NCBI RefSeq assembly: GCF_000010065.1
Contig: NC_006576.1
Span: 1,500,001 to 1,532,000, forward strand
From: Synechococcus elongatus PCC 6301
GTDB lineage: Bacteria > Cyanobacteriota > Cyanobacteriia > Synechococcales > Synechococcaceae
Reading direction: 5' to 3'
DNA: 32,000 nucleotides
A program made the position numbers and the translations under genes. Position 1 is the first letter of the stretch; the number at the start of each line of letters is the position of its first letter. Shown here in pieces: positions 1 through 17,644 of the stretch. Below the pieces are notes generated by a model. The model saw only the letters and a program-made list of their open reading frames with translations, did no database searches and had not been told where the DNA came from.

Positions 1-869
1 CTTTTGTGGCGACAGCGAAGTCGGACTACTACTGGCGGGATGAACAGGGGCTGTTGCCGATCTCGAATCCGACAATGCTGTGGTCGCGCTGGCAGCGCAG
101 CTACTTTGACCCTTGGGATCGCTGGTTGATGAAGCATCCGCGCTGTCGAGCCGTTTTCCCACGCGATCGCCTGACGGCTGAGGGGTTACAGCAGCTTGGG
201 GTACCGGCGATCGCAGTCGGTAATCCGATGATGGACGGCCTCGAGGCACCGGAAGCTGCAGCTTGGTCCCCCCTTTTGCCGACGGGATCGCGTTGGTTGC
301 TGTTGCCAGGTTCTCGGCCGCCGGAAGCTCAGCGAAATTGGTCGCAGATCATTGATGCACTGCCGGTTGATCCCGACCGCGCTTTTGTGGCGTTGGCGGC
401 GATCGCGCCTTCCTTGCCGCTAGCGGAGTTCACGCAAGGTCTCAGCGATCGCGGTTGGCAACCTGCGGCTAGTCCGATTCCCGAGGCGATCGCCTTTCAA
501 AAAGGAGCAGGTTGGTGCCTACTGGGGCAGCGGAATTTCGCGCCGTTTCTACAACTTGCCGAGGGCGCGATCGGAATGGCTGACACCGCGACAGAGCAAT
601 GCGTGGGGCTCGGTAAGCCCGCTTTCACGATCGCGGGACAGGGGCCGCAGTTCACCCGTGGGTTCGCAGAAGCGCAGACTCGCTTGTTGGGGCAATCGGT
701 GCAGTTACTCTCTCAACCTTCGGACTTCCTAACCGCATGGGAGGCTTATCAAGCCGATCTAGCCATGCAAGAAGCGACCGCAACCAATGGACGCTTACGT
801 CTTGGAGAAGCGGGGGCAGCAGCCCGGATTGCCGAGGTCCTGCGATCGCAGCTGCTAGAGTCAGCGTGA
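1..869 (+). CDS. LpxB-like (lipid-A-disaccharide synthase-related) glycosyltransferase, 5'-truncated by the window edge
   Basis: The reading frame of ORF 6..869 stays open to the window start. It contains LLPGSRPPE, which resembles the LLPGSRxxE motif of LpxB-family glycosyltransferases. Composition is native and HIP1-rich. Confidence 0.5.
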   Translation, partial: FVATAKSDYYWRDEQGLLPISNPTMLWSRWQRSYFDPWDRWLMKHPRCRAVFPRDRLTAEGLQQLGVPAIAVGNPMMDGLEAPEAAAWSPLLPTGSRWLLLPGSRPPEAQRNWSQIIDALPVDPDRAFVALAAIAPSLPLAEFTQGLSDRGWQPAASPIPEAIAFQKGAGWCLLGQRNFAPFLQLAEGAIGMADTATEQCVGLGKPAFTIAGQGPQFTRGFAEAQTRLLGQSVQLLSQPSDFLTAWEAYQADLAMQEATATNGRLRLGEAGAAARIAEVLRSQLLESA

Positions 870-888
870 TTTATTCCTGTTGCGCCCT

Positions 889-1374
889 ATGAGTTTGGCG
901 GAAGACGAGCGCTTTATGCGACGGGCGATCGCGCTGAGTCGGCAAGCAGGATTGATCGATTGTACGGGCGGGCCTTTTGGCTGTGTAATCACTCGCAACG
1001 GCGAGATCATCGCGGAAGGCTTCAATCAAGTCCTGACTGAAAGGGACCCGACTTGGCATGCTGAAATCGCCGCCATTCGACAAGCTTGCCAGCACCTACA
1101 AACTGTTGATTTATCGGGATGCACGCTCTACACCAGCGCGGAACCCTGTCCGATGTGTGCGGCAGCCGTTTACTGGGCCAAGCTCGAGCGCCTTGTTTTT
1201 GCGACCCGCTGCTCTGACACTGCTGCCTACGCCGAGTTTGATGACAGCACTATCTATGCTGAGATCCAAAAGCCAGCCCGCGATCGCACAATTCCCCATC
1301 AAGAACTGCTGCGATCGGAAGCTCAGATCGTTTGGCAAGACTATCAGCAACAACGCGATCGCACCCCGAATTGA
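889..1374 (+). CDS. CMP/dCMP-type zinc deaminase (nucleoside or guanine deaminase family)
   Basis: Both zinc-binding motifs of the cytidine/deoxycytidylate deaminase fold are present: HAE (..PTWHAEIAAI..) and PCPMC (..AEPCPMCAAA..). I prefer the ATG at 889 to the TTG at 880 given in the track. Confidence 0.8.
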   Translation: MSLAEDERFMRRAIALSRQAGLIDCTGGPFGCVITRNGEIIAEGFNQVLTERDPTWHAEIAAIRQACQHLQTVDLSGCTLYTSAEPCPMCAAAVYWAKLERLVFATRCSDTAAYAEFDDSTIYAEIQKPARDRTIPHQELLRSEAQIVWQDYQQQRDRTPN

Positions 1375-1589
1375 GGGCTGAGCGATCGCTCCTGATTGCT
1401 AACGATCCATCAACTCGCTCCGACCAGTCTCTAGACTGACCCCTCACGCTGGCAAAGATTGCACTGTCTAGTGTCTAGGGATCAGGCTGCAGCCGACTGA
1501 AATGGAGCAGCAATTTTTTGCAGCCAAAGAAAAGAAAATAGTGTTAACGTCTTGCATTAATTCGTCGCAATTAATCAAGAACTATTACG

Positions 1590-2147
1590 ATGCTGCAGAA
1601 AGTGACTCGCTTCTTGGGAATCCTTGCGCCACTTTGCTTAGCATCTTCGCTGTCTGCTGCGCCGCCCCCTGAAACCTTTGCCATCCGATCGACTGCAGAC
1701 CTCGAGCGTCTGTTAGCCGGTCTCAGCCGCGATCGCGATGCAGGCGCCCGCCAAGAAATTCAAGCCTTGATGGCGGTTCTTCTCGAAAAAGGGGTTCCCG
1801 TCCGCTATCAGCCCAACGGAGAACTGGGGCCCGGCCAGCGCTTTGTCCGTTTCGGCGTCTTTTCCACCAGCGGTCAACTGACCCTGACCGATCAGCCGCT
1901 GCGGGATACACGGACACTCTTGACTACGCTGCGCCATGAAGCTTGGCATGCCGTGCAAGCCTGCGCCACCAATGGCCGTCCTCGGGGACAACTCAAGCCG
2001 GTTGGCATCCGGACAACTGCAGCCGCGCAGCAAGCCGTGATTGACAAGGGCTATCGCCCTCACGACCACGCGATCGAAGCCGAAGCCTTTACCGCTCAGT
2101 TTGTGCCGTATCAGTCCTTAGAGGCACTGAGAGAGTATTGTCCATAG
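1590..2147 (+). CDS. Small secreted hypothetical protein with an HExxH motif
   Basis: The N-terminal hydrophobic signal-like segment is MLQKVTRFLGILAPLCLASSLSAAP. The motif HEAWH (residues 116-120, nt 1935-1949) fits the zinc-metallopeptidase HExxH pattern. The upstream region is AT-rich. Confidence 0.55.
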   Translation: MLQKVTRFLGILAPLCLASSLSAAPPPETFAIRSTADLERLLAGLSRDRDAGARQEIQALMAVLLEKGVPVRYQPNGELGPGQRFVRFGVFSTSGQLTLTDQPLRDTRTLLTTLRHEAWHAVQACATNGRPRGQLKPVGIRTTAAAQQAVIDKGYRPHDHAIEAEAFTAQFVPYQSLEALREYCP

Positions 2148-2448
2148 CTTGCAAGCGCGATCGCGCCATTGATTGACCATGCAGGCTGACCAAAAATGGG
2201 ACGCAGTAGGTCAGTAGAGCAGAAACCCAACGCGACTGCGTCATTTGGCCATTGGCTGTTGCCCAGCCATGGTTAATCGTAAACAGGAGCGTACCGATGA
2301 ATAACGCTACCCGCACAGCTGTCGCGATCGCCCGACGATCGCGACAGGTTTGACGAAAAGCGGCGATCGCAGACAACAGACACTCACTGGGACTCCGATC
2401 GACAGTCTGCACTGCCCCAGCTTGACCGACTGTCTGATTTGCCACCAA
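2089..2448 (-). CDS. Small membrane protein, NrtS-like (putative nitrate/nitrite transporter family)
   Basis: The segments RVALFIGTLLFTINHG and LLTYCVPFLVSLHG resemble my recollection of the NrtS-family pattern (ALVVGTxLxxINHG ... VPYxVS). Start and C-terminal extent are uncertain. The 3' end overlaps the convergent ORF 1590..2147. Confidence 0.4.
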   Translation of the reverse strand: MVANQTVGQAGAVQTVDRSPSECLLSAIAAFRQTCRDRRAIATAVRVALFIGTLLFTINHGWATANGQMTQSRWVSALLTYCVPFLVSLHGQSMARSRLQAMDNTLSVPLRTDTAQTER

Positions 2449-2454
2449 TTGCCC

Positions 2455-3939
2455 CTAGCCTTTCAGCTTTTGGTTGAGGATTTGGTTCGAGAGCTTCGGA
2501 TCGACACGCCCACCCGTTTTCTTCATCAGTTGACCCACAAAGAAGCCCTGCAGCTTGGTTTTACCAGCACGGAACTGCTCTAGCTCCGTGGGGTGCGCCG
2601 CCAAAAGTTCATCAACTAGCGCTTCGATCTGCGCCGGATCGGAGATTTGCGTCAGACCCTTCGCTTCCACGATCGCTTTGGGAGAGCCACCTTTTTCCAG
2701 CAGTTCCGGCAGAATTTCCTTGGCAATTTTGCCGCTGATCGTGCCCGCTTCAATCAGGTTGACCAGTTCCGCCAAATCTTGTGGCTGCAGCGGCAGATCC
2801 GATACCAGCAATTTGTTGGCGTTGACGTAGGCCGCGATGTCGCCCATCAGCCAGTTGGCCGCCTGCTTAGCATCCGCACCGGCAGCCACGGTTGCTTCGT
2901 AGTAATCCGCCGTGCTTTTCTCGTCGGTCAGCACCCGCGCATCGTAGGCCGAAAGTCCATATTGCTCAGCGTAGCGATGGCGTTTTTGCGCCGGTAATTC
3001 CGGCAATTCACTGCGCCAGGTTTCCCGCTGAGTCTCGCTGACTTCGATCGGGCCGAGATCTGGTTCAGGGAAGTAGCGATAGTCGCTTGATCCCTCTTTG
3101 GAGCGCATCGACTTGGTGACTTGCTTGCCTTCATCCCAGAGACGAGTCTCTTGGACGATCGGCTCACCCGTTTCGAGGCAGCGAATCTGGCGCTCAATCT
3201 CGAACTCGATCGCCCGTTGAATGGCGTTGAACGAGTTCATATATTTGATTTCGACTTTGGTACCGAATTTCTCGGTGCCCTTGGGGCGAATCGAGATGTT
3301 GACGTCGCAGCGCAGCGAGCCTTCAGCCATGTTGCCGTCGCTGACGCCGAGGTAGCGCATGATCCGGCGCAGTTCTTGGGCGTATTCCGCTGCTTCCTTA
3401 CCCGTACGCAGATCGGGTTCCGAGACGATTTCCGCCAAGGCCACACCAGCGCGGTTGTAGTCCACCAAGGAGTGGGTCGAACCCGCGAGGCGATCGCTCC
3501 CAGCATGGACGAGTTTGCCCGCGTCCTCTTCCATGTGCAGGCGGGTCACGCCAATTTTCTTGGTGTAGGGTTCTTTGCCCTTCTCGGCGACCTCGATTTC
3601 AATCCAGCCATGTTCCGCGATCGGCAGGTCGTACTGCGAGATCTGATAGTTCTTAGGCAGGTCGGGATAGAAATACTGCTTGCGATCGAACTTGCTGTAG
3701 GGCGCAATCTGGCAGTTCAGCGCCAAACCGGCTTTGACGGCATACTCCAGCACCTTCTGGTTCAGCACCGGCAGGGTACCCGGCAGACCCAGCACCACCG
3801 GATCGATATGGGTGTTGGGGTCGGCACCAAACTCCGTCGAGGCGTTGGAGAAAATTTTAGTGGCGGTGCCGAGCTGGACGTGTGTTTCCAGACCGATAAC
3901 TGCTTCGTACTCAGTCTTTACAGGAGCCGTCGCTGTCAT
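2455..3939 (-). CDS. gatB: Asp-tRNA(Asn)/Glu-tRNA(Gln) amidotransferase subunit B
   Basis: The protein shows a full-length GatB signature: YEAVIGLETHVQL, DYNRAGV.L.EIVSEPD, and a C-terminal YqeY/GatB tail ending GFFVGQLMKKTGGRVDP. I prefer the ATG at 3939 (MTATAPVK...) to the TTG at 3954. Confidence 0.95.
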   Translation of the reverse strand: MTATAPVKTEYEAVIGLETHVQLGTATKIFSNASTEFGADPNTHIDPVVLGLPGTLPVLNQKVLEYAVKAGLALNCQIAPYSKFDRKQYFYPDLPKNYQISQYDLPIAEHGWIEIEVAEKGKEPYTKKIGVTRLHMEEDAGKLVHAGSDRLAGSTHSLVDYNRAGVALAEIVSEPDLRTGKEAAEYAQELRRIMRYLGVSDGNMAEGSLRCDVNISIRPKGTEKFGTKVEIKYMNSFNAIQRAIEFEIERQIRCLETGEPIVQETRLWDEGKQVTKSMRSKEGSSDYRYFPEPDLGPIEVSETQRETWRSELPELPAQKRHRYAEQYGLSAYDARVLTDEKSTADYYEATVAAGADAKQAANWLMGDIAAYVNANKLLVSDLPLQPQDLAELVNLIEAGTISGKIAKEILPELLEKGGSPKAIVEAKGLTQISDPAQIEALVDELLAAHPTELEQFRAGKTKLQGFFVGQLMKKTGGRVDPKLSNQILNQKLKG

Positions 3940-4159
3940 AGCACCAAGGGGCAAAACACTTTGCCATTATATCGCTGCCCTTTGCCGATCCTGTCGCTGT
4001 CAGGCATTTAAGGGGGAAAGTAGCAGCGATCGCTTTAGCAGATATCATTACGAGCCTGTTTCCCGCCTGCACACTATCTGTCATTGACCAACAGAATCAG
4101 CCTGCTAAAGAGTGCCCATCTTCCATAGCGAGATCATGCCTCATTGGAGATTGGAAAAA

Positions 4160-5491
4160 TTAGTTTTTACATGACCAAGGAATAGGCACAATGTGGCCCA
4201 CCCAAGTACACGAAATTCTACTTCTGTAGGCACCATTATAATTAAGAATTTTCAGAATGATAAGTTCTAAGTACCACAAGCATATCTTCCAAGTTTCTGT
4301 TCTCACTGCAGAAGAGTGCCTTGCATATTTAACTCGATTTTTTTGAGTTGGATGAGTTATTGTATTTCGCATGGCTGTCATAGCGTCAGCTGAATCCATC
4401 CAATTCTCTGATTTGGCTAACTTAGATAACTCAACTAGTTCAGAAGGAATATCTGCAGACACTCCAGACCAATGAATAAGTAAACGTATTCTTTCAGCTG
4501 CAGAAATCCTCGTATAACCATCATTGCTAAGCCACTTTTCCCGTTCTACAAGAACGGCAGAAGAAAGTAATTCTAGCGCTGTTTGTGCTTGGATTATAGC
4601 TCCTTCTAACCCACCTGAGAATGCGTTAGCAGAAAGATACCAATGCAGGGCTGTTTGAAGAACTTCACGCCAATCCTCATCATCCCATAACGACATAAAA
4701 CTGCTGAATGGATCCTCAAGGACTTTTGAATACTGCATATCAGTCCATGTAAAACAATTTCTAAAGGGATCAACACGTGGACAAGACCATTCCATCACAC
4801 TTAAACCCGAGGAAGATCCATCATTACCAACTGGAAAAACACAGCCTATCCATCTTCCGACTGCGAAAGATAGATATAGAGAAAAAACATCTAGAACTTG
4901 AATACCTTCGCTAAATTGAAATTTAGAACCATCTAATCTTGTCAATCTCACTGAATGAGTGAGAGCATATCCTGACTGCTCACACAGCGAATTAAGTATG
5001 TTTTTATGTCCTTTTTTAGAATCAACAATAATTTTCCAGTCAGAACATATAAATTTAAGCCTAGCTCTACAAGAGGTTCCATCAGCATACATGATTGGGT
5101 CACCATAGATTTCATGTAGATTGACAATAGAGCAATCAATGTAATCCACTCTATATTGGGGATTATGTTGTATTTTTTGGCTCATAAAGCCAAAAATTGA
5201 CTCTTCTAATCCACCTGTGGAAATATGTGAAATCTTGCAATTCTTGATTAGCTTTTTATTTTTAAGATATAGATCGACAGTATCTAGTAATAGTGATTTT
5301 ATTGTTCCTATGGGCAACCCTGTAATAGAAAAGCGAACTGCAGGAATCGGAAGCCAAGTTAGCCAAATTCTTCCATTAGACTGAACCAGTACATCATCAA
5401 CATTGACGTAAATCTCGTCATTGTAAAATTCAATCTCTTGATTTAAATTGGTGGAAAAATGAATATCTTCCAATGCAAGAGGGTAGTTCAT
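4160..5491 (-). CDS. Orphan 443-aa protein with a C-terminal HEPN-like RNxxxH motif; candidate stand-alone HEPN RNase (ApeA-like abortive-infection/defence protein)
   Basis: It is a long uninterrupted ORF in AT-rich DNA, where random long ORFs are unlikely. R375-N-T-I-T-H380 (nt 4352-4369) matches the Rx4-6H HEPN signature, specifically the RNxxxH form. The C-terminal third looks helical (EGAIIQAQTALELLSSAVL...). The N-terminal two thirds have no motif I recognise. Confidence 0.6.
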   Translation of the reverse strand: MNYPLALEDIHFSTNLNQEIEFYNDEIYVNVDDVLVQSNGRIWLTWLPIPAVRFSITGLPIGTIKSLLLDTVDLYLKNKKLIKNCKISHISTGGLEESIFGFMSQKIQHNPQYRVDYIDCSIVNLHEIYGDPIMYADGTSCRARLKFICSDWKIIVDSKKGHKNILNSLCEQSGYALTHSVRLTRLDGSKFQFSEGIQVLDVFSLYLSFAVGRWIGCVFPVGNDGSSSGLSVMEWSCPRVDPFRNCFTWTDMQYSKVLEDPFSSFMSLWDDEDWREVLQTALHWYLSANAFSGGLEGAIIQAQTALELLSSAVLVEREKWLSNDGYTRISAAERIRLLIHWSGVSADIPSELVELSKLAKSENWMDSADAMTAMRNTITHPTQKNRVKYARHSSAVRTETWKICLWYLELIILKILNYNGAYRSRISCTWVGHIVPIPWSCKN

Positions 5492-5525
5492 TGATTGAAT
5501 CTCGGAAAGAATCTAGATAATCATC

Positions 5526-5551
5526 ATGTTGAATTAGGTCTATATTCAACA
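5526..5551 (-). promoter_or_regulatory. Perfect 9-bp inverted repeat (ATGTTGAAT-N8-ATTCAACAT) in the upstream region of the orphan ORF
   Basis: ATGTTGAAT at 5526-5534 pairs with ATTCAACAT at 5543-5551. The repeat lies 35-60 nt upstream of the ATG at 5491 and downstream of the fructokinase stop. It could be an operator, or a terminator for the fructokinase gene. Confidence 0.3.
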
Positions 5552-5608
5552 TCCTTGTTTTGGCTTTGTATCTCAATTAAATTATTAGTTAATTTGCTGT
5601 TTAGATAG

Positions 5609-6583
5609 TTAAGTTTTAGATAGTAAAGATTGAATAGCATCAGAAGTCGGCTGAGCTGCGATCGCGCCAGGATTCAGGGTCGTCAAGGCACCAGCAGCAC
5701 TAGCCCAGCGAATCGCTGTTTGCACCTGCTCTGCGCTCGTCCACTGGAAGTCCATTTGCGTGTTTTGCGCTAGCCAAGCAGCGACAAATGCATCTCCCGC
5801 GCCGGTCGTATCGATCGCCTTTACCGGAAAAGAGGGACAGTGACCCTGCCAACCAGCAACCCAGTAGTGGCAGCCGCGATCGCCATCCGTAATCAATACT
5901 GCTTGTAGCTGCGGTTGTCGGGCTTGAATTGTTGCTGGATCAACCGTGTCGAACAGCCATTCCGCTTCTTCTCTCGCTAATTTCAACTGCTGAATTTGAG
6001 GCAGGATGGCACGAATGCGATCGGGAGCCAAACTGGGATCAGGCCAGAAACTTGGTCGCCAGTTGACATCCAAGAGAACGGTCATTCCCTGCTGATTGGC
6101 CCAAGTCAGCGCTTGCTGCGCCGCGATCGCACTACTGGGATAAGCCAGCGGAATCGTGCCTAAGCAGAGCACTTTGGCCAAACGAAACCAAGCCTGCGGC
6201 AACTGCTCCGCTTGCAGTTCCGTATCCGCAAATTGATCGCAAGCGATCGCGCCAAACCCTCCGAACTGGCGATCGCCCTGAGCGGTTCGCAGCACTTGCA
6301 CCTGTCGGGTCGGCAGGCGGGGATGCCGCTGCACCGCCGCGATCGCCACGCCATTGTCTTGGAGAACTTGAAAGAGGCGATCGCCTTCAGGATCAGAACC
6401 GAGGCAGGTAATCAGTCCCGACTGAACACCAAGCTTGACTAGCGCCGTTGCAACATTGGCGGGAGCACCCCCCGGCCAAGGTGTCCAACTTTGCACCTGT
6501 TCCGCCGGAAGATCGCGATCGTTGGCCAAACAATCCCAGAGCATTTCTCCCAGACAGATGACCGTTGGCGCTTGGGCTGTCAT
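5609..6583 (-). CDS. PfkB-family carbohydrate kinase (fructokinase-like)
   Basis: The protein carries the PfkB signatures GGAPANVA near the N-terminus and DTTGAGDAF near the C-terminus. At 324 aa its length is typical. Confidence 0.85.
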   Translation of the reverse strand: MTAQAPTVICLGEMLWDCLANDRDLPAEQVQSWTPWPGGAPANVATALVKLGVQSGLITCLGSDPEGDRLFQVLQDNGVAIAAVQRHPRLPTRQVQVLRTAQGDRQFGGFGAIACDQFADTELQAEQLPQAWFRLAKVLCLGTIPLAYPSSAIAAQQALTWANQQGMTVLLDVNWRPSFWPDPSLAPDRIRAILPQIQQLKLAREEAEWLFDTVDPATIQARQPQLQAVLITDGDRGCHYWVAGWQGHCPSFPVKAIDTTGAGDAFVAAWLAQNTQMDFQWTSAEQVQTAIRWASAAGALTTLNPGAIAAQPTSDAIQSLLSKT

Positions 6584-6735
6584 CCCCGCTTCCCCCGTGG
6601 ATCTTTCGCTTCACCCTAGCGAGTCTGCCAACGGAATCGAACGACCCACAAAAAGTGTAGGAAGCGTAGCGATCGCCACAAATATTTACAGAATATTGGC
6701 TAAGCTGTGGGCGCAGTCCGCGGAGGGCCTTGCCA

Positions 6736-7251
6736 ATGGCCTTAGTTCGACAAGTTGAAGTTCTTCCCGTCGAAAGCTTTCGTAGCGGTACTGCTCAGTT
6801 TTTTGCGCCCCAAACCTGCGATCAAACCATGGTGGTTGAGCTCGGTGCAGAGCAGGTGGAAGACTTATTTGTCCATCACTTCCAAACCGACCAACTAATG
6901 GTGCTACAGGGTCAGTTCGTTCTAGTCGTGCTAGAAAATCGGCGCTATCGCTATCTACCCCTGAGCGATCCCAAACGGGAAGTGGTGCGGATTCCGCCGG
7001 GGATTCCCCACGGAGCAGTCAATCTCAGTGGCGAACCTTGCCTACTAGTCAATGCGGTTATTCGCCATGGGGAACCGTGCGATCGCGATTATCGACCGCT
7101 GCAGCCTCCCCTGCCCTACGACTGGGCAGCCATTCAGCAGGCATTGCAGAGCCTGCGATCGCCGCGCCAGCCGCAACCACTACCTAGACAAAGGAATCGA
7201 GATCAAGGGACTTCAGGCCACCTTGCTCAATCTGGCGCATCACATTCGTAA
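6736..7251 (+). CDS. Cupin-fold protein (RmlC/WxcM-like sugar epimerase/isomerase fold)
   Basis: The pattern FVHHFQTDQLMVLQG...RIPPGIPHGAVN resembles the cupin strands of dTDP-sugar epimerase-like proteins. I prefer the ATG at 6736. The low-complexity C-terminal tail overlaps the convergent membrane-protein gene. Confidence 0.45.
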   Translation: MALVRQVEVLPVESFRSGTAQFFAPQTCDQTMVVELGAEQVEDLFVHHFQTDQLMVLQGQFVLVVLENRRYRYLPLSDPKREVVRIPPGIPHGAVNLSGEPCLLVNAVIRHGEPCDRDYRPLQPPLPYDWAAIQQALQSLRSPRQPQPLPRQRNRDQGTSGHLAQSGASHS

Positions 7252-7555
7252 GCTGCCACCAAACCAGCCCTGCCGTCAGCACTGTCAGCGGTAGGGCGAT
7301 CGCGGCAGCAAACCAAGCCGGAAATCCAAAAATTTGCATACCAGCAGCCAAGAACAAGCCGACGCCGATCACCATGGCCAGATAGGGCAAACGCAGTTCA
7401 ACACCCCGCAGAGCGGAGAGTGGCGTCTCTGGGTCAACCAACCATTGCCGGACCAACTGCTTGAGGATTGCAGCAAAGGCAGAACCACTGGTGACCGCAG
7501 CCAAAAACCCTGCAATCAGCAGAAAGTAGGGGGGCTGATCTGGAAAGTAGTACAA
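7184..7555 (-). CDS. Hypothetical integral membrane protein
   Basis: There are three clear hydrophobic spans: FLLIAGFLAAVTSGSAFAAIL, LAMVIGVGLFLAAGMQIFGF and AAAIALPLTVLTAGLVWW. Composition is native. Confidence 0.6.
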   Translation of the reverse strand: MYYFPDQPPYFLLIAGFLAAVTSGSAFAAILKQLVRQWLVDPETPLSALRGVELRLPYLAMVIGVGLFLAAGMQIFGFPAWFAAAIALPLTVLTAGLVWWQLTNVMRQIEQGGLKSLDLDSFV

Positions 7556-7593
7556 GCAGACCTCAGAGATGCAACGGCTTTGATCCTAGCGGC

Positions 7594-7686
7594 TTAGATG
7601 AGCTTGACAGCGCGCAGGCCGAACAGCAGCGCGATCGCAGTAAAAATGCCACCGCCAAGAACCAAGCCAAAAAAGACTGCGCCCAT
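7594..7686 (-). CDS. petL: Cytochrome b6-f complex subunit 6 (PetL), 30 aa; below the ORF-track size cutoff
   Basis: My own translation of the minus strand gives MGAVFFGLVLGGGIFTAIALLFGLRAVKLI*. It is a single transmembrane helix ending in the PetL-type tail GLR.x.K(L/I)(I/L). From memory, petL also sits next to phr in S. elongatus. Confidence 0.75.
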   Translation of the reverse strand: MGAVFFGLVLGGGIFTAIALLFGLRAVKLI

Positions 7687-7741
7687 AATTTCAGTTCTGA
7701 ACTTGCACGCTCTTTATTGAAGCAGAAGCAGCGCCCAGCAC

Positions 7742-9196
7742 CTATGAATCGGGCTCAGCCTCAGGTTCAGCGATAGCCGCTTTGAGCTGGTTGTAGAGCG
7801 CCTTGAACTGTTTCTGGCGCAGGTTGTGATTCACGATCGGGGCAGGATAGCCTCGGCGTCCAATCGGCGTGATCTCCCCACTGATCAAGTCCTTGGGATG
7901 GACATGGCGCAGTTCTGGCAGCCAACGTTTGATGTAGGTCGCCGTGGCATCAAACTTCTTGGCCTGACTAGCAGGATTGAAAATCCGCAGCGGTTTGGGA
8001 TCCATGCCACTGGAAGCGCTCCACTGCCAACCGCCGTTATTTGCAGCCAGATCGCCATCGACCAAGTGCTGCATAAAGAACTGCTCCCCACGCCGCCAGT
8101 CGATGATCAAATCCTTGGTCAAAAAGCTGGCAACAATCATCCAGCAACGGTTGTGCATCCAGCCGGTTTCAGTCAGTTGGCGCATCGCTGCATCAACAAT
8201 CGGATAGCCCGTTTGCGCCTGGGTCCAAGCCGTGAACAGAGCCTCGCGATTTTCCCAAGGGAATTGCTGCCAGAGCGAGCGATAGGGACCATCGGCCAGG
8301 CTCGGGAAATGGTAGAGCGCATGCTGATAGAACTCCCGCCAAGCGAGTTCCTGCTGCCAAACGCGAATGCTGTTGCGGGCTTCGTCGCTGCGGCTGAGGG
8401 CATGGGCTGCACTGGCAGCCCGCCAAGCCTGACGAATACCGATCGCCCCGAATTTCAAAGCGGGACTCAAGCCCGAGGTTCCTGCTTCCGCCGGAAAATT
8501 GCGCTGGGGATCGTAGTCGGCGATCGCGCGATCGCAAAATTCTTGAAGACGGGCGATCGCCGCTGTTTCCCCCGGCTCCACTGGAAAACCCCCGTCCCAG
8601 TCAAAGCCAAGCTGCTTCAGGGTCGGTAGTTCCGACAACAGCAGAGGTGCGATCGCAGTTAGTTGCTCTGGTGAGAGATCGACCAGTTCTGTCGGTGTGG
8701 CAACCGGCGTGGGCTTGGGCTGAGCCTGCCAATTTTTCCAAAACGGCCCGTAGACGCTGTAGGGATTACCGCTGCCGCTGAGGATTTGATCGGGGCTATG
8801 GAGCAGTTGATCCCAGAGTTGAACAGCCCGAATGCCTGCCGTTTTCAGAGCGGCTGCGACCTGCCCATCGCGATCGCGGCCGTAGGGTTCAATGTCTTGG
8901 TTCCAATAAACTGCTTCCGCCTGAAGCTGCTGCGCCAGTTGCGGGATCAGGTGTTGTGGATCCCCTTGGAGCAATAGCAGCCGACTGCCCGCCTGTTGAT
9001 AACGCTGCTGGAGTTCCTGTAGGCAGCCCTGCAGGTAGGCAACCCGTGCTGGCGCCATGTCAGCACTCTGGAGAATCTGAGGGTCGAGGCAAAACAGACC
9101 GATCAGCTGCGCTGATTGTGCCCGCGCCGCCGCCAGACCAATGTTGTCGCTGAGGCGCAGGTCACGCCGGTGCCAAAACAGAATCGGAGCCGCCAC
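7742..9196 (-). CDS. phr: Deoxyribodipyrimidine (class I CPD) photolyase
   Basis: The 484-aa protein starts MAAPILFWHRRDLRLSDN and contains TGWMHNR, DGDLAANNGGWQW and the active-site residues E283, W286, M353 and W392. It matches my memory of the Anacystis nidulans photolyase. The W at residue 352 is discussed in the findings. Confidence 0.95.
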   Translation of the reverse strand: MAAPILFWHRRDLRLSDNIGLAAARAQSAQLIGLFCLDPQILQSADMAPARVAYLQGCLQELQQRYQQAGSRLLLLQGDPQHLIPQLAQQLQAEAVYWNQDIEPYGRDRDGQVAAALKTAGIRAVQLWDQLLHSPDQILSGSGNPYSVYGPFWKNWQAQPKPTPVATPTELVDLSPEQLTAIAPLLLSELPTLKQLGFDWDGGFPVEPGETAAIARLQEFCDRAIADYDPQRNFPAEAGTSGLSPALKFGAIGIRQAWRAASAAHALSRSDEARNSIRVWQQELAWREFYQHALYHFPSLADGPYRSLWQQFPWENREALFTAWTQAQTGYPIVDAAMRQLTETGWMHNRCWMIVASFLTKDLIIDWRRGEQFFMQHLVDGDLAANNGGWQWSASSGMDPKPLRIFNPASQAKKFDATATYIKRWLPELRHVHPKDLISGEITPIGRRGYPAPIVNHNLRQKQFKALYNQLKAAIAEPEAEPDS

Positions 9197-9274
9197 AGCT
9201 GCCTCGGAAATAAGCCTTGGCTATTCTAGAAGGCTGATTTACTGGAGCCGCGATCGCAGCTTGCTGGTTCAGCC

Positions 9275-10870
9275 CTAAAGCTGGATCACCACTTGATTCT
9301 CAACCACGGTTTCCAGGGTCAGCAGATCTTCAATCGTCACCCGCAAAAAACGATCGCGATCAACCCAGAACTGGAGCCGTAGACGGTCAACCCCCGGATC
9401 GCCGGGTGGATCAAGTCGGGCGATCGTGCGGGCGGTTTCGCTATCATTCAGCGCCTTTGCTGCCGTGCGATCGGGCCCAATCCGGCGCGTAATCAGGCGA
9501 TCGCCATCAAAGAAAATCTCCGTCGCGCCGCGATCCTGACTCAGTTCACCGAGGACTAATTCCATGCTGGGTTGTTGCGCCACCGAAGCCCCCAGCACTA
9601 GCTCGACCGGTTCCGCCATCGGGTAGGCTTGGCCGGGCGGAATCAGTGGATGCCAATCATGGCGCTGACTGCGATGGTTCCAGTAGCGAATGCCGTAGCT
9701 GTGATAGAGAAAATCGCGGACTTCTAGCCCTTGCGCCAGTTGCAAAGCACCGCAAGCTACCGCCTCAAAGGGGCGATCGCAGCGAATCTTTTCAGTCGGG
9801 AAATAACCCGCCAGCCAGTCTTGCACAGCAGGAATTTGGGCGCTGCCACCGACCATCAGAACAGCTGCAATCGCATCAGGATTAATGCCTTGGCGGCGAC
9901 CTTGCTGGAGGACTGATTCGAGCAATTCATCCAGTTGTTCAGAGAAGCCGCGATCGTGCAGAATCTGCTGAAATTGCGAGCGATCAAGCTGTAGTTGTAG
10001 GCTTTGCAGCGTTTCGTCATCAAAGTAGACTTCGCTCGCCTCAGGCGTTGTCGAAAGCTGGATTTTGATCCGCTCCGCTAAGCGCGTCAGGACACGCGTT
10101 GGAGCCGTATTCAGTTGTTTCGCAAAGTAGTCGGTCAGCCAGTCATCGAGATCATTGCCGCCAAGGTTTCGACCTGCTTTTGCTAGCACCCGCGCCAGTT
10201 GCGGGCGCTGACCGCTGTTGTCGCCAAAAGATTGGTCGCCCCATTTGAGGATGAAACCCAAGGGCGATCGCACCTTGGAGGTAGTCTGTCCCAACTCAAT
10301 TAAGGCGAGATCGAGGGTGCCACCGCCAAAGTCAAAGACCAGAATGGGCGACTGCTGCTCGACACCGTAGCCCAGCGCTGCCGCCGTTGGTTCGTCAATC
10401 AAGCGGACGCGATCGACCGGCCACTGTTGTGCCACGCGACTCAGCCACAGCCGATAGTTCTCAAAGCTATCGACGGGCACCGTCAGCACGAGGTCAGCGC
10501 CGTCGCGATCGCCCGGTTCTAAAGCAGCAATCACTGTGTCCAAAAACCACTGGCCGACCTGTTCAAAGTCAGGGCAGACACCATCTAAATCCGGCAGAAA
10601 GCCCGTAACTTCTGCCCCAATCCCGCGCTTAAAACTGCGAAAAAAACGGGAATCCTGCGGGCGATCGCGCCCTTGATCGCGCACAGCTTGCCCTGCGAGC
10701 AAACGGGGCATCGTCGCTTCTTCGACGTAGAGCAGACTGGGAATCAGTGGTGGGGTTTGGGAGCCCCGCTGACTGAGATTGGTCAGCGACAGCAATTCCG
10801 GCGATTGCGTTTCTGTATTCCAACGCGCCACCACAGTATTACTGGTGCCGAAATCCAGCGCGATCGCCAC
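9275..10870 (-). CDS. Hsp70/DnaK-like ATPase (non-canonical, with a divergent C-terminal domain)
   Basis: The actin-like ATPase motifs are present: DFGTSNT, IDEPTAAALGYG, FDFGGGTLD and VGGSAQIP. The start is GTG at 10870. The C-terminal 150 aa do not resemble the canonical DnaK substrate-binding domain. Confidence 0.85.
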   Translation of the reverse strand: MAIALDFGTSNTVVARWNTETQSPELLSLTNLSQRGSQTPPLIPSLLYVEEATMPRLLAGQAVRDQGRDRPQDSRFFRSFKRGIGAEVTGFLPDLDGVCPDFEQVGQWFLDTVIAALEPGDRDGADLVLTVPVDSFENYRLWLSRVAQQWPVDRVRLIDEPTAAALGYGVEQQSPILVFDFGGGTLDLALIELGQTTSKVRSPLGFILKWGDQSFGDNSGQRPQLARVLAKAGRNLGGNDLDDWLTDYFAKQLNTAPTRVLTRLAERIKIQLSTTPEASEVYFDDETLQSLQLQLDRSQFQQILHDRGFSEQLDELLESVLQQGRRQGINPDAIAAVLMVGGSAQIPAVQDWLAGYFPTEKIRCDRPFEAVACGALQLAQGLEVRDFLYHSYGIRYWNHRSQRHDWHPLIPPGQAYPMAEPVELVLGASVAQQPSMELVLGELSQDRGATEIFFDGDRLITRRIGPDRTAAKALNDSETARTIARLDPPGDPGVDRLRLQFWVDRDRFLRVTIEDLLTLETVVENQVVIQL

Positions 10871-10934
10871 GCGAAACCACCCTTGCTGTCTGTGCTTTCA
10901 GTTTACGAAAGCCCTGGGATCGCCCTCACTCGTT

Positions 10935-11492
10935 TCAGGACAAACGATCGACTTCCGCCCGCTGGATCAAGCGATCGCGCCAACGATACCCCGGTCGCCA
11001 AATCACAACGCGATCGCCTGGCTCGGCCTGACCCTCGCGCAGCAATTGCCAACTGGGATCAAAGGCGAACTCCTGGCCGATCGTCCCGAGGGTTTCAACT
11101 TGCCAGTCTTTCAACAACTGCTCCAGCGGTTGCAGCAAGGGCAACAGTCGCTCTGCGGGTAAATCCGATCGCTGTTGAGCAGCCCAAGCGGCGCGGGGCC
11201 AGTTCAATAGCCACGGCTCCAAGCGATGCAGCCCATCCTGCTCAAAGGTTTCGCGATCGCTGGTTGAAGCGATCGGGGCAGGAGTCTGGCGGGCTGATTC
11301 CGGCTCGACTAACTTGGCAACATCGATCTGAAGGACAGCCGCGATCGCCGCTAATTGTTTCCAAGTGAGTGAGTCGCCTTGACCTTGTCGCAGGCGCTGC
11401 AAGACTCGCTCAGAGACGCCACTTTGCTGAGCGAGCGATCGCCAACTGGTGAGGCCTTGTGCCTGCATCCACTGCCGCAACTGGGCTTCCAT
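10935..11492 (-). CDS. HTH (XRE-type) domain protein with a GrpE-like C-terminal domain
   Basis: The N-terminus (WRSLAQQSGVSERVLQRLRQG) is HTH-like. The C-terminus (VETLGTIGQEFAFDPSWQLL...PGDRVVIWRPGYRWRDRLIQRAEV) follows the GrpE beta-domain pattern (VExIGxxGxxFDPxxHxA...G.V..V...GY....R..R.A.V). It lies directly upstream of the Hsp70-like gene. Confidence 0.6.
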   Translation of the reverse strand: MEAQLRQWMQAQGLTSWRSLAQQSGVSERVLQRLRQGQGDSLTWKQLAAIAAVLQIDVAKLVEPESARQTPAPIASTSDRETFEQDGLHRLEPWLLNWPRAAWAAQQRSDLPAERLLPLLQPLEQLLKDWQVETLGTIGQEFAFDPSWQLLREGQAEPGDRVVIWRPGYRWRDRLIQRAEVDRLS

Positions 11493-11498
11493 CGGGAA

Positions 11499-12047
11499 CT
11501 AGCTTTCCAGCAGACTGCGCAGCATCCAAGCATTTTTCTCGTGGATTTGCATCCGCTGAGTCAGCAAGTCAGCGGTCGGTTCATCGCTGGCAGCATCGAC
11601 GATCGGGAAAAGAGCCCGCGCGGTTCGCACCACCGTTTCTTGACCAATCACCAACTGCTGAATCATCTCAGTGGCGCTGGGAATGCCGTCTGCTTCTTCA
11701 ATGCTGGTGAGTTTGGCGTAGGCGCTGTAGCTGCCAGGTGCCGGAAAACCAAGGGCGCGAATCCGTTCGGCAATCAAATCGACGGCCAAGGCTAGCTCGT
11801 TGTATTGCGTCTCAAACAGCAAGTGCAGCGTCTGGAACATCGGGCCGGTGACATTCCAATGGAAATTGTGGGTTTTGAGATAGAGGGTGTAGGTATCTGC
11901 CAGCAGTCGGGAGAGCCCATCTGCGATCGCCTGCCGATCGTCATTACTGATGCCAATGTCCACGGGCAGCGTGGCCGCTTTTTTACCTTCCGATTTTTTA
12001 CCCATACAGCTTGCAACCTCAGAATTCCAGTGTTCAGTTTGCCCCAT
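11499..12047 (-). CDS. dpsA: Dps-family ferritin-like DNA-binding protein
   Basis: [25 protein letters not shown] is a typical Dps ferroxidase-region signature. The start is ambiguous: TTG 12050, ATG 12047 or ATG 12005. Confidence 0.85.
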
Positions 12048-16229: not shown

Positions 16230-16425
16230 CTGAATTTCACATTAGATATAGTTATTCATGACGGCATCAAGAAATGCACTAAAACTTGTGAATGACATCA
16301 GGCTAGGCTTTCAACAATTTGTCATCCCCATACAGCGAGATGCAAGAATAAAAAATGTTTGCAGCCGACAATAATTGTTCTGGAGCAACTATAAGAGATC
16401 GCTGACTTCTAATTAGGAGAAGCTA

Positions 16426-17250: not shown

Positions 17251-17614
17251 ATCGATGAGATCCCTTGCAGAGATCTTGCAGTCTTGCTCTGACGCCTTAT
17301 TCCCCGCTGAAATGGGGCGTAAGAAGGTTGACATTCACAGCACAGATTGTGATGGGGATACGCCACTTCATGTGATGGTGCGACGGGCTGACTTTGCTGC
17401 AGTTCTAGTGCTAATCGAGGCGGGTGCTAACGTAAATGCGATCGGGGATATGGGTGAAACACCGCTGCACATTGCGGTTCGACAAGAGTTAGAACCGATC
17501 GTGGAAGCCTTGCTGGAGGCTGGATCCAATCCAGATATCCGGTCTGAATTTGGTCAAACTCCCAGAGAGCAGGCTGCAAAGCTTAAAGGCACCATCAAGC
17601 AATTATTTAGGTAG
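17240..17614 (+). CDS. Ankyrin-repeat protein (2-3 repeats)
   Basis: GDTPLHVMVRRADFAAVLVLIEAGANVNAIGDMGETPLHIAVRQELEPIVEALLEAGSNPD fits the ANK consensus (G-TPLH-A...LL..GA..N). Candidate starts are GTG 17237, ATG 17240 and ATG 17255. Each one either overlaps the upstream stop (17248-17250) or follows it within 5 nt. Confidence 0.8.
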   Translation: MLAKSMRSLAEILQSCSDALFPAEMGRKKVDIHSTDCDGDTPLHVMVRRADFAAVLVLIEAGANVNAIGDMGETPLHIAVRQELEPIVEALLEAGSNPDIRSEFGQTPREQAAKLKGTIKQLFR

Positions 17615-17644
17615 CTGCCAATCATCAAGGTATTCCTAGAGCAA

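Follow-up and report, generated by a model that had tools for sequence, protein, structure and literature searches.

Between gatB and a fructokinase gene of Synechococcus elongatus PCC 6301 lies an AT-rich islet with a single long gene, and the locus raises the questions of how that gene came to be there and what its product does. The DNA analysed was a stretch of 32,000 nucleotides (the window). A sequence-only reading of it had described the gene as an orphan of accessory or defensive character, horizontally acquired and dropped between two housekeeping genes, with nothing nearby to explain its arrival.

Composition and gene content of the islet

The changes in composition that the sequence-only reading placed at about 4140 and about 5640 are borne out. 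In a sliding profile the stretch from about 4050 to 5650 has a GC content of 0.34-0.42, down from about 0.55-0.60, and in 30-nt bins the fructokinase-side step at 5640/5641 is abrupt (0.67 at 5670-5641, 0.23 at 5640-5611), with the gatB-side step at about 4141-4170. The strain-specific segment, 3995-5648, has a GC content of 0.374 against 0.556 in the remainder of the window (z = -6.4); the lowest value among 541 other segments of the same length is 0.485. The tetranucleotide L1 distance of the segment is 0.67, and elsewhere it does not exceed 0.34. GC3 of the ORF at 4160-5491 is 0.28, compared with 0.55-0.69 in four neighbouring genes. The compositional observation adds nothing new, because the gene, Synpcc7942_0117, has been in a list of alien genes since 2011. 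Delaye et al. 2011 (PMC3025956) give its coordinates and locus tag and tabulate it with a G+C content of 37.24% (-2 SD), 0 HIP1 sites, a 'PA' flag and a best match to Planctomyces. Their 'putative alien' genes of PCC 7942 were selected on the same criteria as those of the sequence-only reading and include this exact gene, but their account leaves out what the gene does, which family it belongs to, what else can occupy the slot and how the junctions look (PMC3025956).

The HIP1 octamer GCGATCGC is absent from 4034-5657, that is, between the copies at 4026-4033 and 5658-5665, just as had been claimed, and the window carries 106 sites in all, about one per 300 bp, with a chance expectation of 1.3. 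The HIP1 gap of the islet is not exceptional by itself: it ranks third in length within the window, behind gaps of 2053 bp (GC content 0.58) and 1658 bp (0.49), and chance would be expected to produce about 0.5 gaps of 1624 bp or longer.

The islet holds exactly one long ORF, on the minus strand, and the ORF list contains no second plausible ORF in 3940-5660. Exact-sequence accessions of its product are ABB56149.1 and BAD79577.1. Neither an integrase nor a transposase was found among the ORFs of the islet, no tRNA was found in window positions 1-12000, and Rfam gave no match in 3800-5800. As to direct repeats, a single HIP1-containing 12-mer flanks the islet (4022-4033 and 5654-5665). On these observations an integrase- or tRNA-associated island was rejected. 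The sequence-only reading was thus right about the single ORF, the missing mobility genes and tRNA, and both neighbours (Table 1). Of these neighbours, gatB is given as essential in the supplement to Adomako et al. 2022 (PMC9239245). The spacer upstream of Synpcc7942_0117 yielded no promoter match, and the spacer RNA fold was no better than that of shuffled sequences.

Table 1. Features of the gatB-cscK interval (window positions)
Feature	Position	Strand	Basis
gatB (Synpcc7942_0118)	2455-3939	-	Pfam GatB_N and GatB_Yqey
Conserved native block upstream of gatB, with TATAAT box at 3966-3971 (minus)	3940-4000	-	Three-way alignment, sequence
Lineage-specific segment (PCC 7942), the replaced cassette	4001-5657		Bounded by UTEX 3055 and IITB7 homology
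Strain-specific spacer, host-like GC (about 0.5), one HIP1 (4026-4033)	4001-4140		GC bins, alignment
AT-rich, HIP1-free islet core	4141-5641		30-nt GC bins, sliding GC, HIP1 list
Synpcc7942_0117, 443 aa, YopA family (end includes stop codon)	4160-5491	-	ORF list, exact-sequence match, Pfam, tblastn
Residues 251-443, all-alpha C-terminal domain, predicted HEPN-type RNase	4163-4741	-	AF2 model, pLDDT 92.4
RNxxxH (Rx4H) motif, codons for R375-N-T-I-T-H380	4352-4369	-	Sequence
Residues 141-250, conserved alpha/beta middle domain	4742-5071	-	AF2 model
Residues 1-140, beta-rich N-terminal domain, proposed sensor	5072-5491	-	AF2 secondary structure
Fructokinase cscK (Synpcc7942_0116)	5609-6583	-	Pfam PfkB
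HIP1 palindrome common to all three strains, encoding 'AIA' of GAIAAQP	5658-5665		HIP1 list, junction alignments

Replacement of a cassette between cscK and gatB

When the gatB-fructokinase interval was aligned across strains, the islet proved to be absent from UTEX 3055 and IITB7. Gene order is the same in both, the flanks being 97-98% (UTEX 3055) and 86-89% (IITB7) identical to the window, and in both the slot is occupied by a different gene (SUKH/SMI1-KNR4) in place of Synpcc7942_0117. The blastn breakpoints fell at window positions 5649/5648 and 4000/4001 against UTEX 3055 and at 5649 and 3994 against IITB7, and the junctions were inspected in three-way alignments of the window, UTEX 3055 and IITB7. 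The slot ORF of UTEX 3055 (L095 9166-9816) matched SMI1_KNR4 with 45.8 bits (cut-off 25.4) and SUKH_6 with 42.5 bits (cut-off 27). The SUKH alleles of the two strains are 62% identical at the amino acid level and 71.6% at the nucleotide level, with flanks at 85-98%. Adomako et al. 2022 (PMC9239245) tabulate the strain difference and, in the supplement, pair the SUKH gene with PCC7942_pg0120.

Judged from these alignments, the islet is a replacement in a slot that other strains have occupied, and it overwrites the last fructokinase codons. The final 13 or so codons of cscK (5609-5647) fall inside the foreign segment; with a GC content of 0.33 this tail is the lowest 39-nt window of the gene, and at least six different fructokinase tails exist among S. 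elongatus strains. The fructokinase-side breakpoint, where the cscK tail is rewritten, lies no more than 10 nt from the HIP1 shared by the three strains (5658-5665), which is the last fully conserved block ahead of it. The gatB-side edge of the replacement is formed by the native block 3940-4000, and that junction has no HIP1. Recombination associated with HIP1 has been cited for Synechococcus (Adomako et al. 2022, PMC9239245), and the positions of the breakpoints would fit either homologous or HIP1-associated recombination; a HIP1 so near a breakpoint could also be chance, at roughly 5% for one site per 300 bp.

We regard horizontal acquisition by cassette replacement as solid, and a strain-specific accessory gene is what the comparison reveals, since UTEX 3055 and IITB7 carry another gene in a syntenic setting. 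The picture of a gene dropped between two housekeeping genes is imprecise; the event was a cassette replacement in a slot that is occupied in other strains. The remark that nothing explains the arrival is partly answered by breakpoints that lie in conserved flanks. Because the strains differ at the slot, and because 0 of 80 other cyanobacterial fructokinase loci have gatB or Synpcc7942_0117 nearby, the interval is not one that relatives share with the same content. The fructokinase contig search returned cyanobacteria only and is uninformative on an empty site, because its matches were about 50% identical and none adjoined gatB. We also considered a donor in which pfkB adjoined yopA, with the crossover in pfkB. 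This idea is unsupported: pfkB does not adjoin the closest homologue whose context could be read, and the nearest homologue of all is 45% identical.

The YopA family and its predicted nuclease domain

The gene is not an orphan. In the precomputed Pfam table the window protein and all 34 close homologues carry YopA_M (PF26308) and YopA_C (PF27216) at E <= 1e-5; a Pfam scan of the window protein gave 0 matches at E <= 10, the YopA models apparently being missing from that copy. Besides the 34 close homologues there are 2,946 representatives (clusters at 50% identity), nearly all full length at 430-480 aa. By tblastn, yopA of SPbeta (SPBc2) is 24.7% identical to the window protein over 99% of the query (E = 2e-31), and on this sequence evidence Synpcc7942_0117 is a full-length homologue of YopA of the Bacillus prophage. 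The two proteins are alike in length (438 and 443 aa), in keeping RNxxxH and in being encoded by a stand-alone accessory gene in both hosts; they differ in that identity is about 25% and in that one gene is prophage-borne whereas the other is chromosomal in a cyanobacterium. The homologue search found relatives in a Bacillus phage, E. coli, Methylophaga and cyanobacterial plasmids, and the family spans cyanobacteria, Proteobacteria, Planctomycetes (the best match in Delaye et al. 2011) and a Bacillus prophage, and probably Actinobacteria, from one soil-metagenome label. A metagenome profile search recovered 13 loci, and no relatives were found on IMG/VR viral contigs. NCBIfam gave one match to the ORF, far below the cut-off (E 0.11), and PHROGs gave none. 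The label 'thiol methyltransferase 1-like' in UniRef and old GenBank records is a spurious legacy name, with no methyltransferase family match behind it. Membership in YopA names the gene without explaining its function, because the family carries no assigned function in the sources searched; the literature searched held no paper on YopA function, nor one on Synpcc7942_0117 in its main text.

The AF2 model divides the protein into three domains (Table 1). In this model, which has a pLDDT of 92.7, residues 1-160 are almost all beta-strand, and the N-terminal domain varies fastest, with a mean pairwise identity of 0.18-0.26 versus 0.34-0.38 in the C-terminal domain; many family matches align only from about residue 120-170 onward. 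Foldseek gave weak similarities of the N-terminal region to poxin, split-barrel flavin reductases, PilZ domains and small phage proteins. The middle domain, with conserved positions G174, T178, F209, G212 and W249, probably corresponds by position to YopA_M, and the C-terminal domain, modelled with a pLDDT of 92.4, probably to YopA_C.

The window protein contains the conserved Rx4-6H motif of the HEPN superfamily (R375...H380). Only R375, H380 and L413 are invariant across 109 diverse members, whose mean column identity is 28%, and conservation of N376 reaches at least 90%; R375 and H380 are also invariant in a 31-sequence alignment. Near the top of the Foldseek list, HEPN toxins, Csm6 and archaeal HEPN proteins come up repeatedly (TM <= 0.53, all E > 1), and some of the best superpositions of the C-terminal domain are with the HepT structures 7bxo, 7ae6/8/9 and 8xdj. 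HEPN_Apea is the sole Pfam family matched by more than one member (6/31, best E 0.0024; 16/109, best E 0.0056), and Las1, another HEPN family, was matched once among the relatives. No curated HEPN profile matched the window protein at threshold, searches of the PDB by sequence and with two profiles found nothing relevant, and Foldseek with the full-length model found no significant match in PDB or BFVD. Because significant HEPN profile, Foldseek and PDB matches are lacking, the HEPN assignment rests on the motif and on weak convergent signals. Weak but recurrent matches support the C-terminal domain as a predicted HEPN RNase.

Among known systems the best functional analogy is ApeA, in which ligand-activated cleavage of the tRNA anticodon leads to abortive infection; something similar may apply to YopA. 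Both are single polypeptides with non-catalytic N-terminal domains and a divergent C-terminal HEPN domain, which is predicted in the window protein, and for both the nearest solved folds are HepT-type toxins (10.64898/2026.01.26.701840); weak HEPN_Apea matches occur in the 16 YopA members noted above. In the ApeA preprint, HepT structures including 7AE8 are the closest match to its HEPN domain (10.64898/2026.01.26.701840). The structure 7AE8 is also among the Foldseek matches of the C-terminal domain studied here. Unlike the window protein, with its 443 aa and beta-rich N-terminal half, ApeA has about 580 aa, is mostly alpha-helical and consists of N, Mid and split-HEPN parts. Membership in ApeA was rejected: there is no ApeA_NTD1 match, HEPN_Apea lies below threshold and in relatives only, and PADLOC, which presumably includes ApeA models, gave no match. 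DARNA / PD-T7-3 (10.64898/2026.02.22.705581) resembles the window protein as a single-gene Rx4H HEPN protein of 456 aa, and DARNA performs a triggered cleavage of the tRNA anticodon loop. Its HEPN domain is N-terminal, followed by a helical Pds5-like C-terminal domain, whereas the window motif lies at 375-380 of 443 residues; identity was rejected because the domain order is opposite, and no PADLOC match was obtained for the YopA family. HepT/MNT modules share the type of catalytic motif, but HepT is a minimal HEPN protein of about 130-150 aa paired with an MNT antitoxin, while the HEPN-like domain here is fused to about 250 extra residues. A HepT/MNT module was rejected, as no nucleotidyltransferase ORF is adjacent (3940-5660) and no neighbour is conserved across contexts.

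Genomic contexts, alternatives and proposed function

Restriction-modification (RM) genes, toxin-antitoxin clusters, integrases and SPbeta accessory genes adjoin homologues of Synpcc7942_0117. Individual contexts include a type I RM system with a toxin-antitoxin pair; a type III RM system with HepT/MNT; three VapBC pairs with IS elements; an MmeI-type RM system with an NB-ARC/TPR protein and an integrase; and, on an E. coli IncY plasmid, a type I RM system with two DUF262 genes. The SPbeta accessory region around yopA contains the toxin gene yonT, entered as hypothetical in the record, and also encodes a protein with a RES domain and a member of the Sie-B family. Most annotated contexts include RM, toxin-antitoxin, STAND-like or integrase neighbours, and some homologues are adjoined by ordinary genes. 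Neighbour ORFs match 398 PADLOC models versus 69 in a size-matched control, a coarse comparison over about 15 loci in which the models are redundant and the control is not matched for taxon. At 9 of 10 loci the family gene is AT-shifted relative to its flanks. PADLOC gave no match for the window protein and 10 diverse relatives, and the family has no PHROG match. No partner gene is conserved across the homologue contexts, and Synpcc7942_0117 would therefore act as a single gene. A defence role, which the sequence-only reading had suggested, is plausible, judging from the neighbourhoods of homologues.

These observations can be brought together as follows. The cassette 4001-5657 replaced an earlier occupant of the strain-variable cscK-gatB slot in the PCC 7942/6301 lineage, entering probably through recombination in the conserved flanks without an integrase, with one crossover inside the 3' end of cscK, within 10 nt of the shared HIP1. 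Synpcc7942_0117 would be a stand-alone sensor-effector toxin, probably a phage-triggered, RNA-cutting defence protein. In its predicted C-terminal HEPN RNase domain the catalytic RNxxxH residues R375 and H380 would come together from two copies of the protein, paired as a homodimer, in one composite active site, and the middle domain and the fast-evolving N-terminal domain may keep the nuclease off until a cue derived from infection is sensed. Cellular RNA, with tRNA or mRNA as the likeliest targets, would then be cleaved and the infected cell arrested, which would amount to abortive infection or would shut out a mobile element. Taken jointly, this account of a 1.65-kb foreign cassette with a YopA-family sensor-effector HEPN RNase toxin seems to us reasonably probable.

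The gene could instead be a selfish or addiction toxin, or a leftover of a mobile element, with no anti-phage function and no benefit to the host, that spreads through recombination and persists because its loss is neutral or mildly toxic. Family copies do reside on plasmids and in a prophage, beside integrases or transposases, some lie amid housekeeping genes with no defence neighbours, and PADLOC has no model for them. We consider this unlikely, given that the islet contains no ORF for a cognate antitoxin or partner and none is conserved across contexts, that about 2,900 clusters retain the full-length architecture and the motif, a pattern that speaks for selection on function, and that copies are found repeatedly in or beside RM operons, a location typical of defence genes. 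Slightly less likely again is that the C-terminal domain is not HEPN and that the invariant R and H serve some other chemistry or binding in a role that has nothing to do with cutting RNA, as in a different enzyme, a receptor or a non-catalytic exclusion factor. The absence of a significant HEPN profile or structure match for the window protein, and the modest best Pfam E-values of relatives (0.002-0.006), would suit such a protein; against it, nothing in the family is more strongly conserved than RNxxxH, the canonical HEPN signature, the domain is all-alpha with HEPN folds a recurrent class among its better-superposing neighbours, and the one repeated Pfam match, like the single Las1 match, is to a HEPN family.

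That the islet is native, its AT-richness and lack of HIP1 being due to local selection (on expression or DNA structure) and its gene a housekeeping 'thiol methyltransferase 1-like' enzyme, would agree with the HIP1-free stretches of similar length that hold native genes elsewhere in the window, and with the name in the UniRef and old GenBank records. It is nevertheless extremely improbable: the strain comparison already refutes it, the gene being absent from the syntenic locus of UTEX 3055 and IITB7, and the composition is that of an outlier (z = -6.4). Moreover, the nearest homologue is 45% identical, other relatives are those in Bacillus phage, E. coli, Methylophaga and cyanobacterial plasmids (Delaye et al. 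2011 had their top match in Planctomyces), and no methyltransferase family is matched.

Returning to the sensor-effector toxin, we tentatively extend the proposal, as a possibility somewhat short of probable, to YopA as a widespread, unrecognised single-gene HEPN abortive-infection system combined with the cscK-gatB interval as a HIP1-bounded site of conflict-gene exchange. Such a site would swap a HEPN toxin and a SUKH immunity gene by recombination in a naturally transformable host. The hallmark of YopA, absent from PADLOC v2, would be its fast-evolving, beta-rich N-terminal proposed sensor, which differs from the sensors of ApeA, DARNA and PD-T4-2. A clean natural cassette replacement beside a HIP1 palindrome bears on the old question of a recombination-promoting role for HIP1 in cyanobacteria, and for engineers who use PCC 7942, Synpcc7942_0117 is a dispensable-looking, strain-specific locus beside cscK. 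The new element is that a large family, so far uncharacterised, is given a function that can be tested; copies occur in S. elongatus PCC 7942 and in the SPbeta lysogen of B. subtilis, both highly tractable models. If the proposal is true, YopA would join the single-protein RNase defences, and its new sensor domain could reveal a new infection cue.

Composition and gene content of the islet

Sequence comparison matched the window to about 108-121 kb of the PCC 7942 chromosome (CP000100.1), with 10 differences in 12,583 aligned bases and none inside the islet. The differences lie at 583, 778, 1188, 3243, 6971, 7860, 8143, 8421, 9942 and 11233, that at 3243 making GatB residue 233 Y in the window as against N in CP000100.1; we believe that laboratory strains of PCC 7942 would be expected to differ by fewer than ten bases.

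A 300-nt sliding profile showed that GC drops from about 0.55-0.60 to 0.34-0.42 across approximately 4050-5650. When 30-nt bins were used, the step on the fructokinase (cscK) side was very sharp (0.67 at 5670-5641 to 0.23 at 5640-5611), and that on the gatB side fell at about 4141-4170. Composition statistics were computed on the strain-specific segment 3995-5648 and compared with the rest of the window. The GC content of the segment was 0.374 against 0.556, the lowest value among other windows of equal length being 0.485 (z = -6.4 for the segment), and its tetranucleotide distance was about twice the maximum found elsewhere in the window. GC3 was 0.28 in the islet ORF and 0.55-0.69 in neighbouring genes. 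The abrupt GC drop described in the sequence-only reading is thus confirmed, as is its observation that HIP1 is missing from 4034-5657: HIP1 (GCGATCGC) occurs at 106 sites in the window, where 1.3 are expected, and none lies between those at 4026-4033 and 5658-5665. The gap is, however, unremarkable by itself, as about 0.5 gaps of that size are expected by chance, and two longer HIP1-free gaps in the window have ordinary or near-ordinary GC. A second HIP1-free stretch, at 16182-17839, has a GC of 0.49; its three ORFs, tabulated below, are a 274-aa ORF with no Pfam match and genes for an ankyrin-repeat protein and for a putative restriction endonuclease of the Uma2 family.

The ORF list and searches of the islet agreed with the earlier description of one long ORF (4160-5491, minus strand, 443 aa) and detected no tRNA, Rfam match, integrase or transposase. 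The AT-rich spacer of 117 bp that separates the cscK stop from the start of the ORF contains an inverted repeat, ATGTTGAAT-N9-ATTCAACAT, at 5526-5552. Taken as a whole, the spacer did not fold better than shuffled sequences (z = -0.74).

The ORF is Synpcc7942_0117 (ABB56149.1; identical protein BAD79577.1 in PCC 6301). The features by which it had been noticed are those used by Delaye et al. 2011 to define alien genes, namely a scarcity of HIP1, a deviant G+C content and unusual codon usage (PMC3025956), and the supplementary table of that study lists Synpcc7942_0117 (115391..116722, G+C 37.24%, -2 SD, 0 HIP1) as "PA", putative alien, with Planctomyces maris as best hit and phage SPBc2 as neighbour. 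In Adomako et al. 2022 (PMC9239245), a supplementary listing pairs UTEX3055_pg0115 SMI1-KNR4 with "PCC7942_pg0120 hypothetical protein", which at the same time bears out the strain assignment. The alien status and the strain difference at the slot are therefore already tabulated; we found no discussion of the function of Synpcc7942_0117 in the searchable literature. Its legacy name in UniRef and older GenBank records, "Thiol methyltransferase 1-like", was rejected and looks like a propagated annotation error, because no methyltransferase family matches the protein.

Coordinates of slot occupants, ORFs of the second HIP1-free stretch and regions of Synpcc7942_0117
Feature	Location	Strand	Remark
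SUKH/SMI1-KNR4 slot gene, UTEX 3055	L095 (UTEX 3055 locus) 9166-9819		alternative occupant
SUKH/SMI1-KNR4 slot gene, IITB7	L084 (IITB7 locus) 9174-9824		alternative occupant
274-aa ORF	window 16426-17250	+	in second HIP1-free stretch; no Pfam match
ORF	window 17237-17614	+	in second HIP1-free stretch
ORF	window 17645-18217	-	overlaps second HIP1-free stretch
Beta-rich N-terminal region	about residues 1-160		AlphaFold2
Alpha/beta middle region	to about residue 250		AlphaFold2
All-alpha C-terminal domain	about residues 255-415		AlphaFold2

Cassette exchange in the cscK-gatB slot

Species-representative genomes were scanned with the fructokinase and the flanks inspected within 8 kb. The matches, at about 50% identity, came from cyanobacteria only, and neither gatB nor a Synpcc7942_0117-like gene was present within 8 kb of these loci; therefore, cscK adjoins gatB specifically in S. 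elongatus. Fructokinases sharing 90-97% identity led to two genomes that were informative, IITB7 (CP143859.1) and UTEX 3055 (CP033061.1). IITB7 is syntenic across the entire neighbourhood, and its slot gene encodes a 216-aa SMI1_KNR4/SUKH protein; the flanks in UTEX 3055 are 96.9% and 98.0% identical to the window, with a gene for a 217-aa SMI1_KNR4/SUKH_6 protein between them. GC is likewise about 40% in the SUKH cassettes, and that of IITB7 is HIP1-free. Both comparisons placed the fructokinase-side breakpoint at 5649|5648 and the gatB-side one at about 4000|4001.

The absence of Synpcc7942_0117 from the syntenic slot in both genomes, together with its outlier composition, bears out the proposal that the gene was horizontally acquired. 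The proposal that it was dropped between two housekeeping genes names the flanks correctly, cscK and gatB, but replacement in a variable slot describes the locus better. By parsimony, SUKH would be the older occupant and the YopA-like gene a replacement in the PCC 7942/6301 lineage, since SUKH is present in both the close and the more distant lineage. Identity between the SUKH alleles of the two genomes is only 62% in amino acids (71.6% in nucleotides) despite flanks of 85-98% identity, so the SUKH gene is itself fast-evolving or has been repeatedly replaced. No toxin gene adjoins it at the slot in UTEX 3055 or IITB7; the family comprises immunity proteins of bacterial toxin systems, according to a table in Adomako et al. 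2022 (PMC9239245).

On the fructokinase side, the sequences of all three strains agree up to the end of the HIP1 at 5658-5665, which codes for "AIA" of the fructokinase sequence GAIAAQP, and PCC 7942 diverges within the next 10 nt. The last 13 or so fructokinase codons lie inside foreign DNA and form the lowest 39-nt GC window of the gene (0.33), and the tail that they encode still aligns with those of other strains (TSDAIQSLL versus SLSEVQTFLL). S. elongatus strains have at least six different fructokinase tails after GAIAAQP (proteins of 324-334 aa; window 5609-5657; fructokinase proteins P0175, P0176 and P0303-P0309). All of these tails part right behind the HIP1-encoded "AIA". Further cassette types therefore probably exist, and judging from the tails PCC 11801, IITB4 and some Logan assemblies may carry them. 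On the gatB side, conservation sets in about 60 nt ahead of the gatB ATG, and the conserved block contains a TATAAT box. The adjoining 140-bp strain-specific stretch (4001-4140) has host-like GC (about 0.5) and a HIP1 at 4026-4033, and is missing at the corresponding position in UTEX 3055 and IITB7; neither a foreign nor a native origin suits it neatly.

Homologous recombination fits the cassette swap because the breakpoints lie in conserved flanks, no recombinase is present and the host is naturally transformable. A HIP1 would fall within 10 nt of a random breakpoint with a chance of about 5%, and the swap is perhaps HIP1-associated; HIP1-linked recombination in Synechococcus is cited by Adomako et al. 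2022 (PMC9239245).

The YopA family and its C-terminal domain

The description of the islet gene as an orphan did not hold. A word-indexed search returned 34 homologues (best 45% identity), all with precomputed Pfam PF26308 (YopA_M) and PF27216 (YopA_C), and an exhaustive search of 50%-identity clusters returned 2,946 representatives at E <= 1e-3 (918 at E <= 1e-30), almost all of 430-480 aa and aligning end to end. In tblastn against 50,697 phage records, yopA of SPbeta (SPBc2) was the sole match and a full-length homologue (E = 2e-31, 99% of the query). Relatives also reside on seven plasmids, of Nostoc, Oscillatoria, Planktothrix, Crinalium, Methylophaga and E. coli (two). Local Pfam, NCBIfam, PADLOC and PHROG scans of Synpcc7942_0117 gave nothing significant, the local Pfam apparently being without both YopA models.

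The full-length AlphaFold2 model, built from the family alignment, has a pLDDT of 92.7, a pTM of 0.91 and three parts (see the table); a separate model of residues 251-443 has a pLDDT of 92.4. Only R375, H380 and L413 are invariant in 109 diverse members (28% mean column identity), and N376 is at least 90% conserved among them, so that R375, N376 and H380 spell RNxxxH, which is the canonical Rx4-6H signature of HEPN proteins, including the polar residue that usually follows the arginine. HEPN_Apea was the sole Pfam family matched by more than one member (6/31 and 16/109, best E 0.002-0.006); Las1, another HEPN nuclease family, was matched once. Foldseek with the C-terminal domain gave no significant match, every E-value exceeding 1. 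Among the better-superposing neighbours, at these same E-values, HEPN proteins recur with target-normalised TM up to 0.53: HepT toxins (7bxo, 7ae6/8/9, 8xdj), archaeal HEPN proteins (1wol, 2q00, 4nqf) and Csm6 (6tug). 7AE8, found here, is with 5YEP one of the HepT structures that are reported to be the nearest structural neighbours of ApeA (preprint 10.64898/2026.01.26.701840). We consider it likely, although not proven, that Synpcc7942_0117 belongs to the HEPN superfamily. Conservation climbs from the N to the C terminus (mean pairwise identity 0.18 for residues 61-140 versus 0.38 for residues 331-443), and for many relatives the alignment begins only at about residue 120-170, as would be expected if a conserved effector carried a variable recognition module.

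Genomic contexts and a proposed mechanism

Contexts of homologues were read with precomputed Pfam annotation. Homologues were found directly behind a type I hsdR-hsdM-hsdS operon containing a DUF433/DUF5615 pair; adjoining a type III RM system that encloses a HepT/MNT pair; adjoining three VapBC pairs and IS elements; directly behind an MmeI-type RM gene, with NB-ARC/TPR proteins and an integrase coming next; within an integrase-bearing element; on an IncY plasmid of E. coli (homologue WP_032177718.1), where type I M and S subunits and two DUF262 genes lie downstream; and on a conjugative Oscillatoria plasmid among integrase, transposases and reverse transcriptase. The yopA gene of SPbeta is an accessory gene that is terminated separately; near it lie the RES-domain gene yopC, the Sie-B-family gene yopH and yonT, a toxin gene listed as hypothetical in the record. 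Two contexts were ordinary or unannotated save for a nearby PIN pair, and no partner gene was conserved across the contexts examined. One metagenome locus of the YopA family (L088, 16001-16924) also includes, about 6.5 kb away, a PfkB kinase gene, probably by coincidence; no PfkB neighbour accompanies the closest homologue whose context could be read.

As a rough control, ORFs were called within 6 kb on each side and matched to PADLOC at E <= 1e-5. The 15 family loci (147 ORFs) matched 398 models, foremost those for MADS components and for the methyltransferase and specificity subunits of type I systems (4 ORFs for each subunit), and 13 fructokinase loci of equal span (125 ORFs) matched 69, mostly MkoA and PD-T4-6, the latter a kinase. 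The comparison is coarse, since the models are redundant and the control is not matched by taxon, but its direction toward defence-rich family contexts is clear. Family genes were AT-shifted relative to their own flanks in nine of ten loci.

Two single-protein HEPN defence systems may serve as models for the mechanism: ApeA, which is switched on by 5'-phosphorylated deoxydinucleotides and cuts tRNA anticodon loops (preprint 10.64898/2026.01.26.701840), and DARNA/PD-T7-3, which is switched on by SSB-bound ssDNA and cuts tRNA (preprint 10.64898/2026.02.22.705581). By analogy, Synpcc7942_0117 would be a self-contained sensor-effector whose HEPN-like domains would dimerise, forming the active site; the N-terminal and middle domains would hold the nuclease off until an infection cue is bound, and RNA cleavage would then arrest the cell. 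We infer activity, trigger, target and phenotype in this way, our observations being confined to anatomy and associations. Membership in either known family was rejected: ApeA is about 580 aa and helical throughout, unlike the 443-aa Synpcc7942_0117 with its beta-rich N-terminus; the HEPN domain of DARNA is N-terminal, whereas the HEPN-like domain here is C-terminal; and no PADLOC model matched any of 11 YopA family members tested. PADLOC includes ApeA and PD-T7-3 models, as far as we are aware.

What is new here is the assignment of Synpcc7942_0117 to the YopA family, the recognition of a HEPN-type motif as the most conserved feature of that family, the defence-rich contexts of its homologues, and the nucleotide-level anatomy of a cassette swap next to a HIP1 site. 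It is plausible that Synpcc7942_0117 represents a new form of single-protein HEPN immunity, and its host is a genetically tractable model organism.
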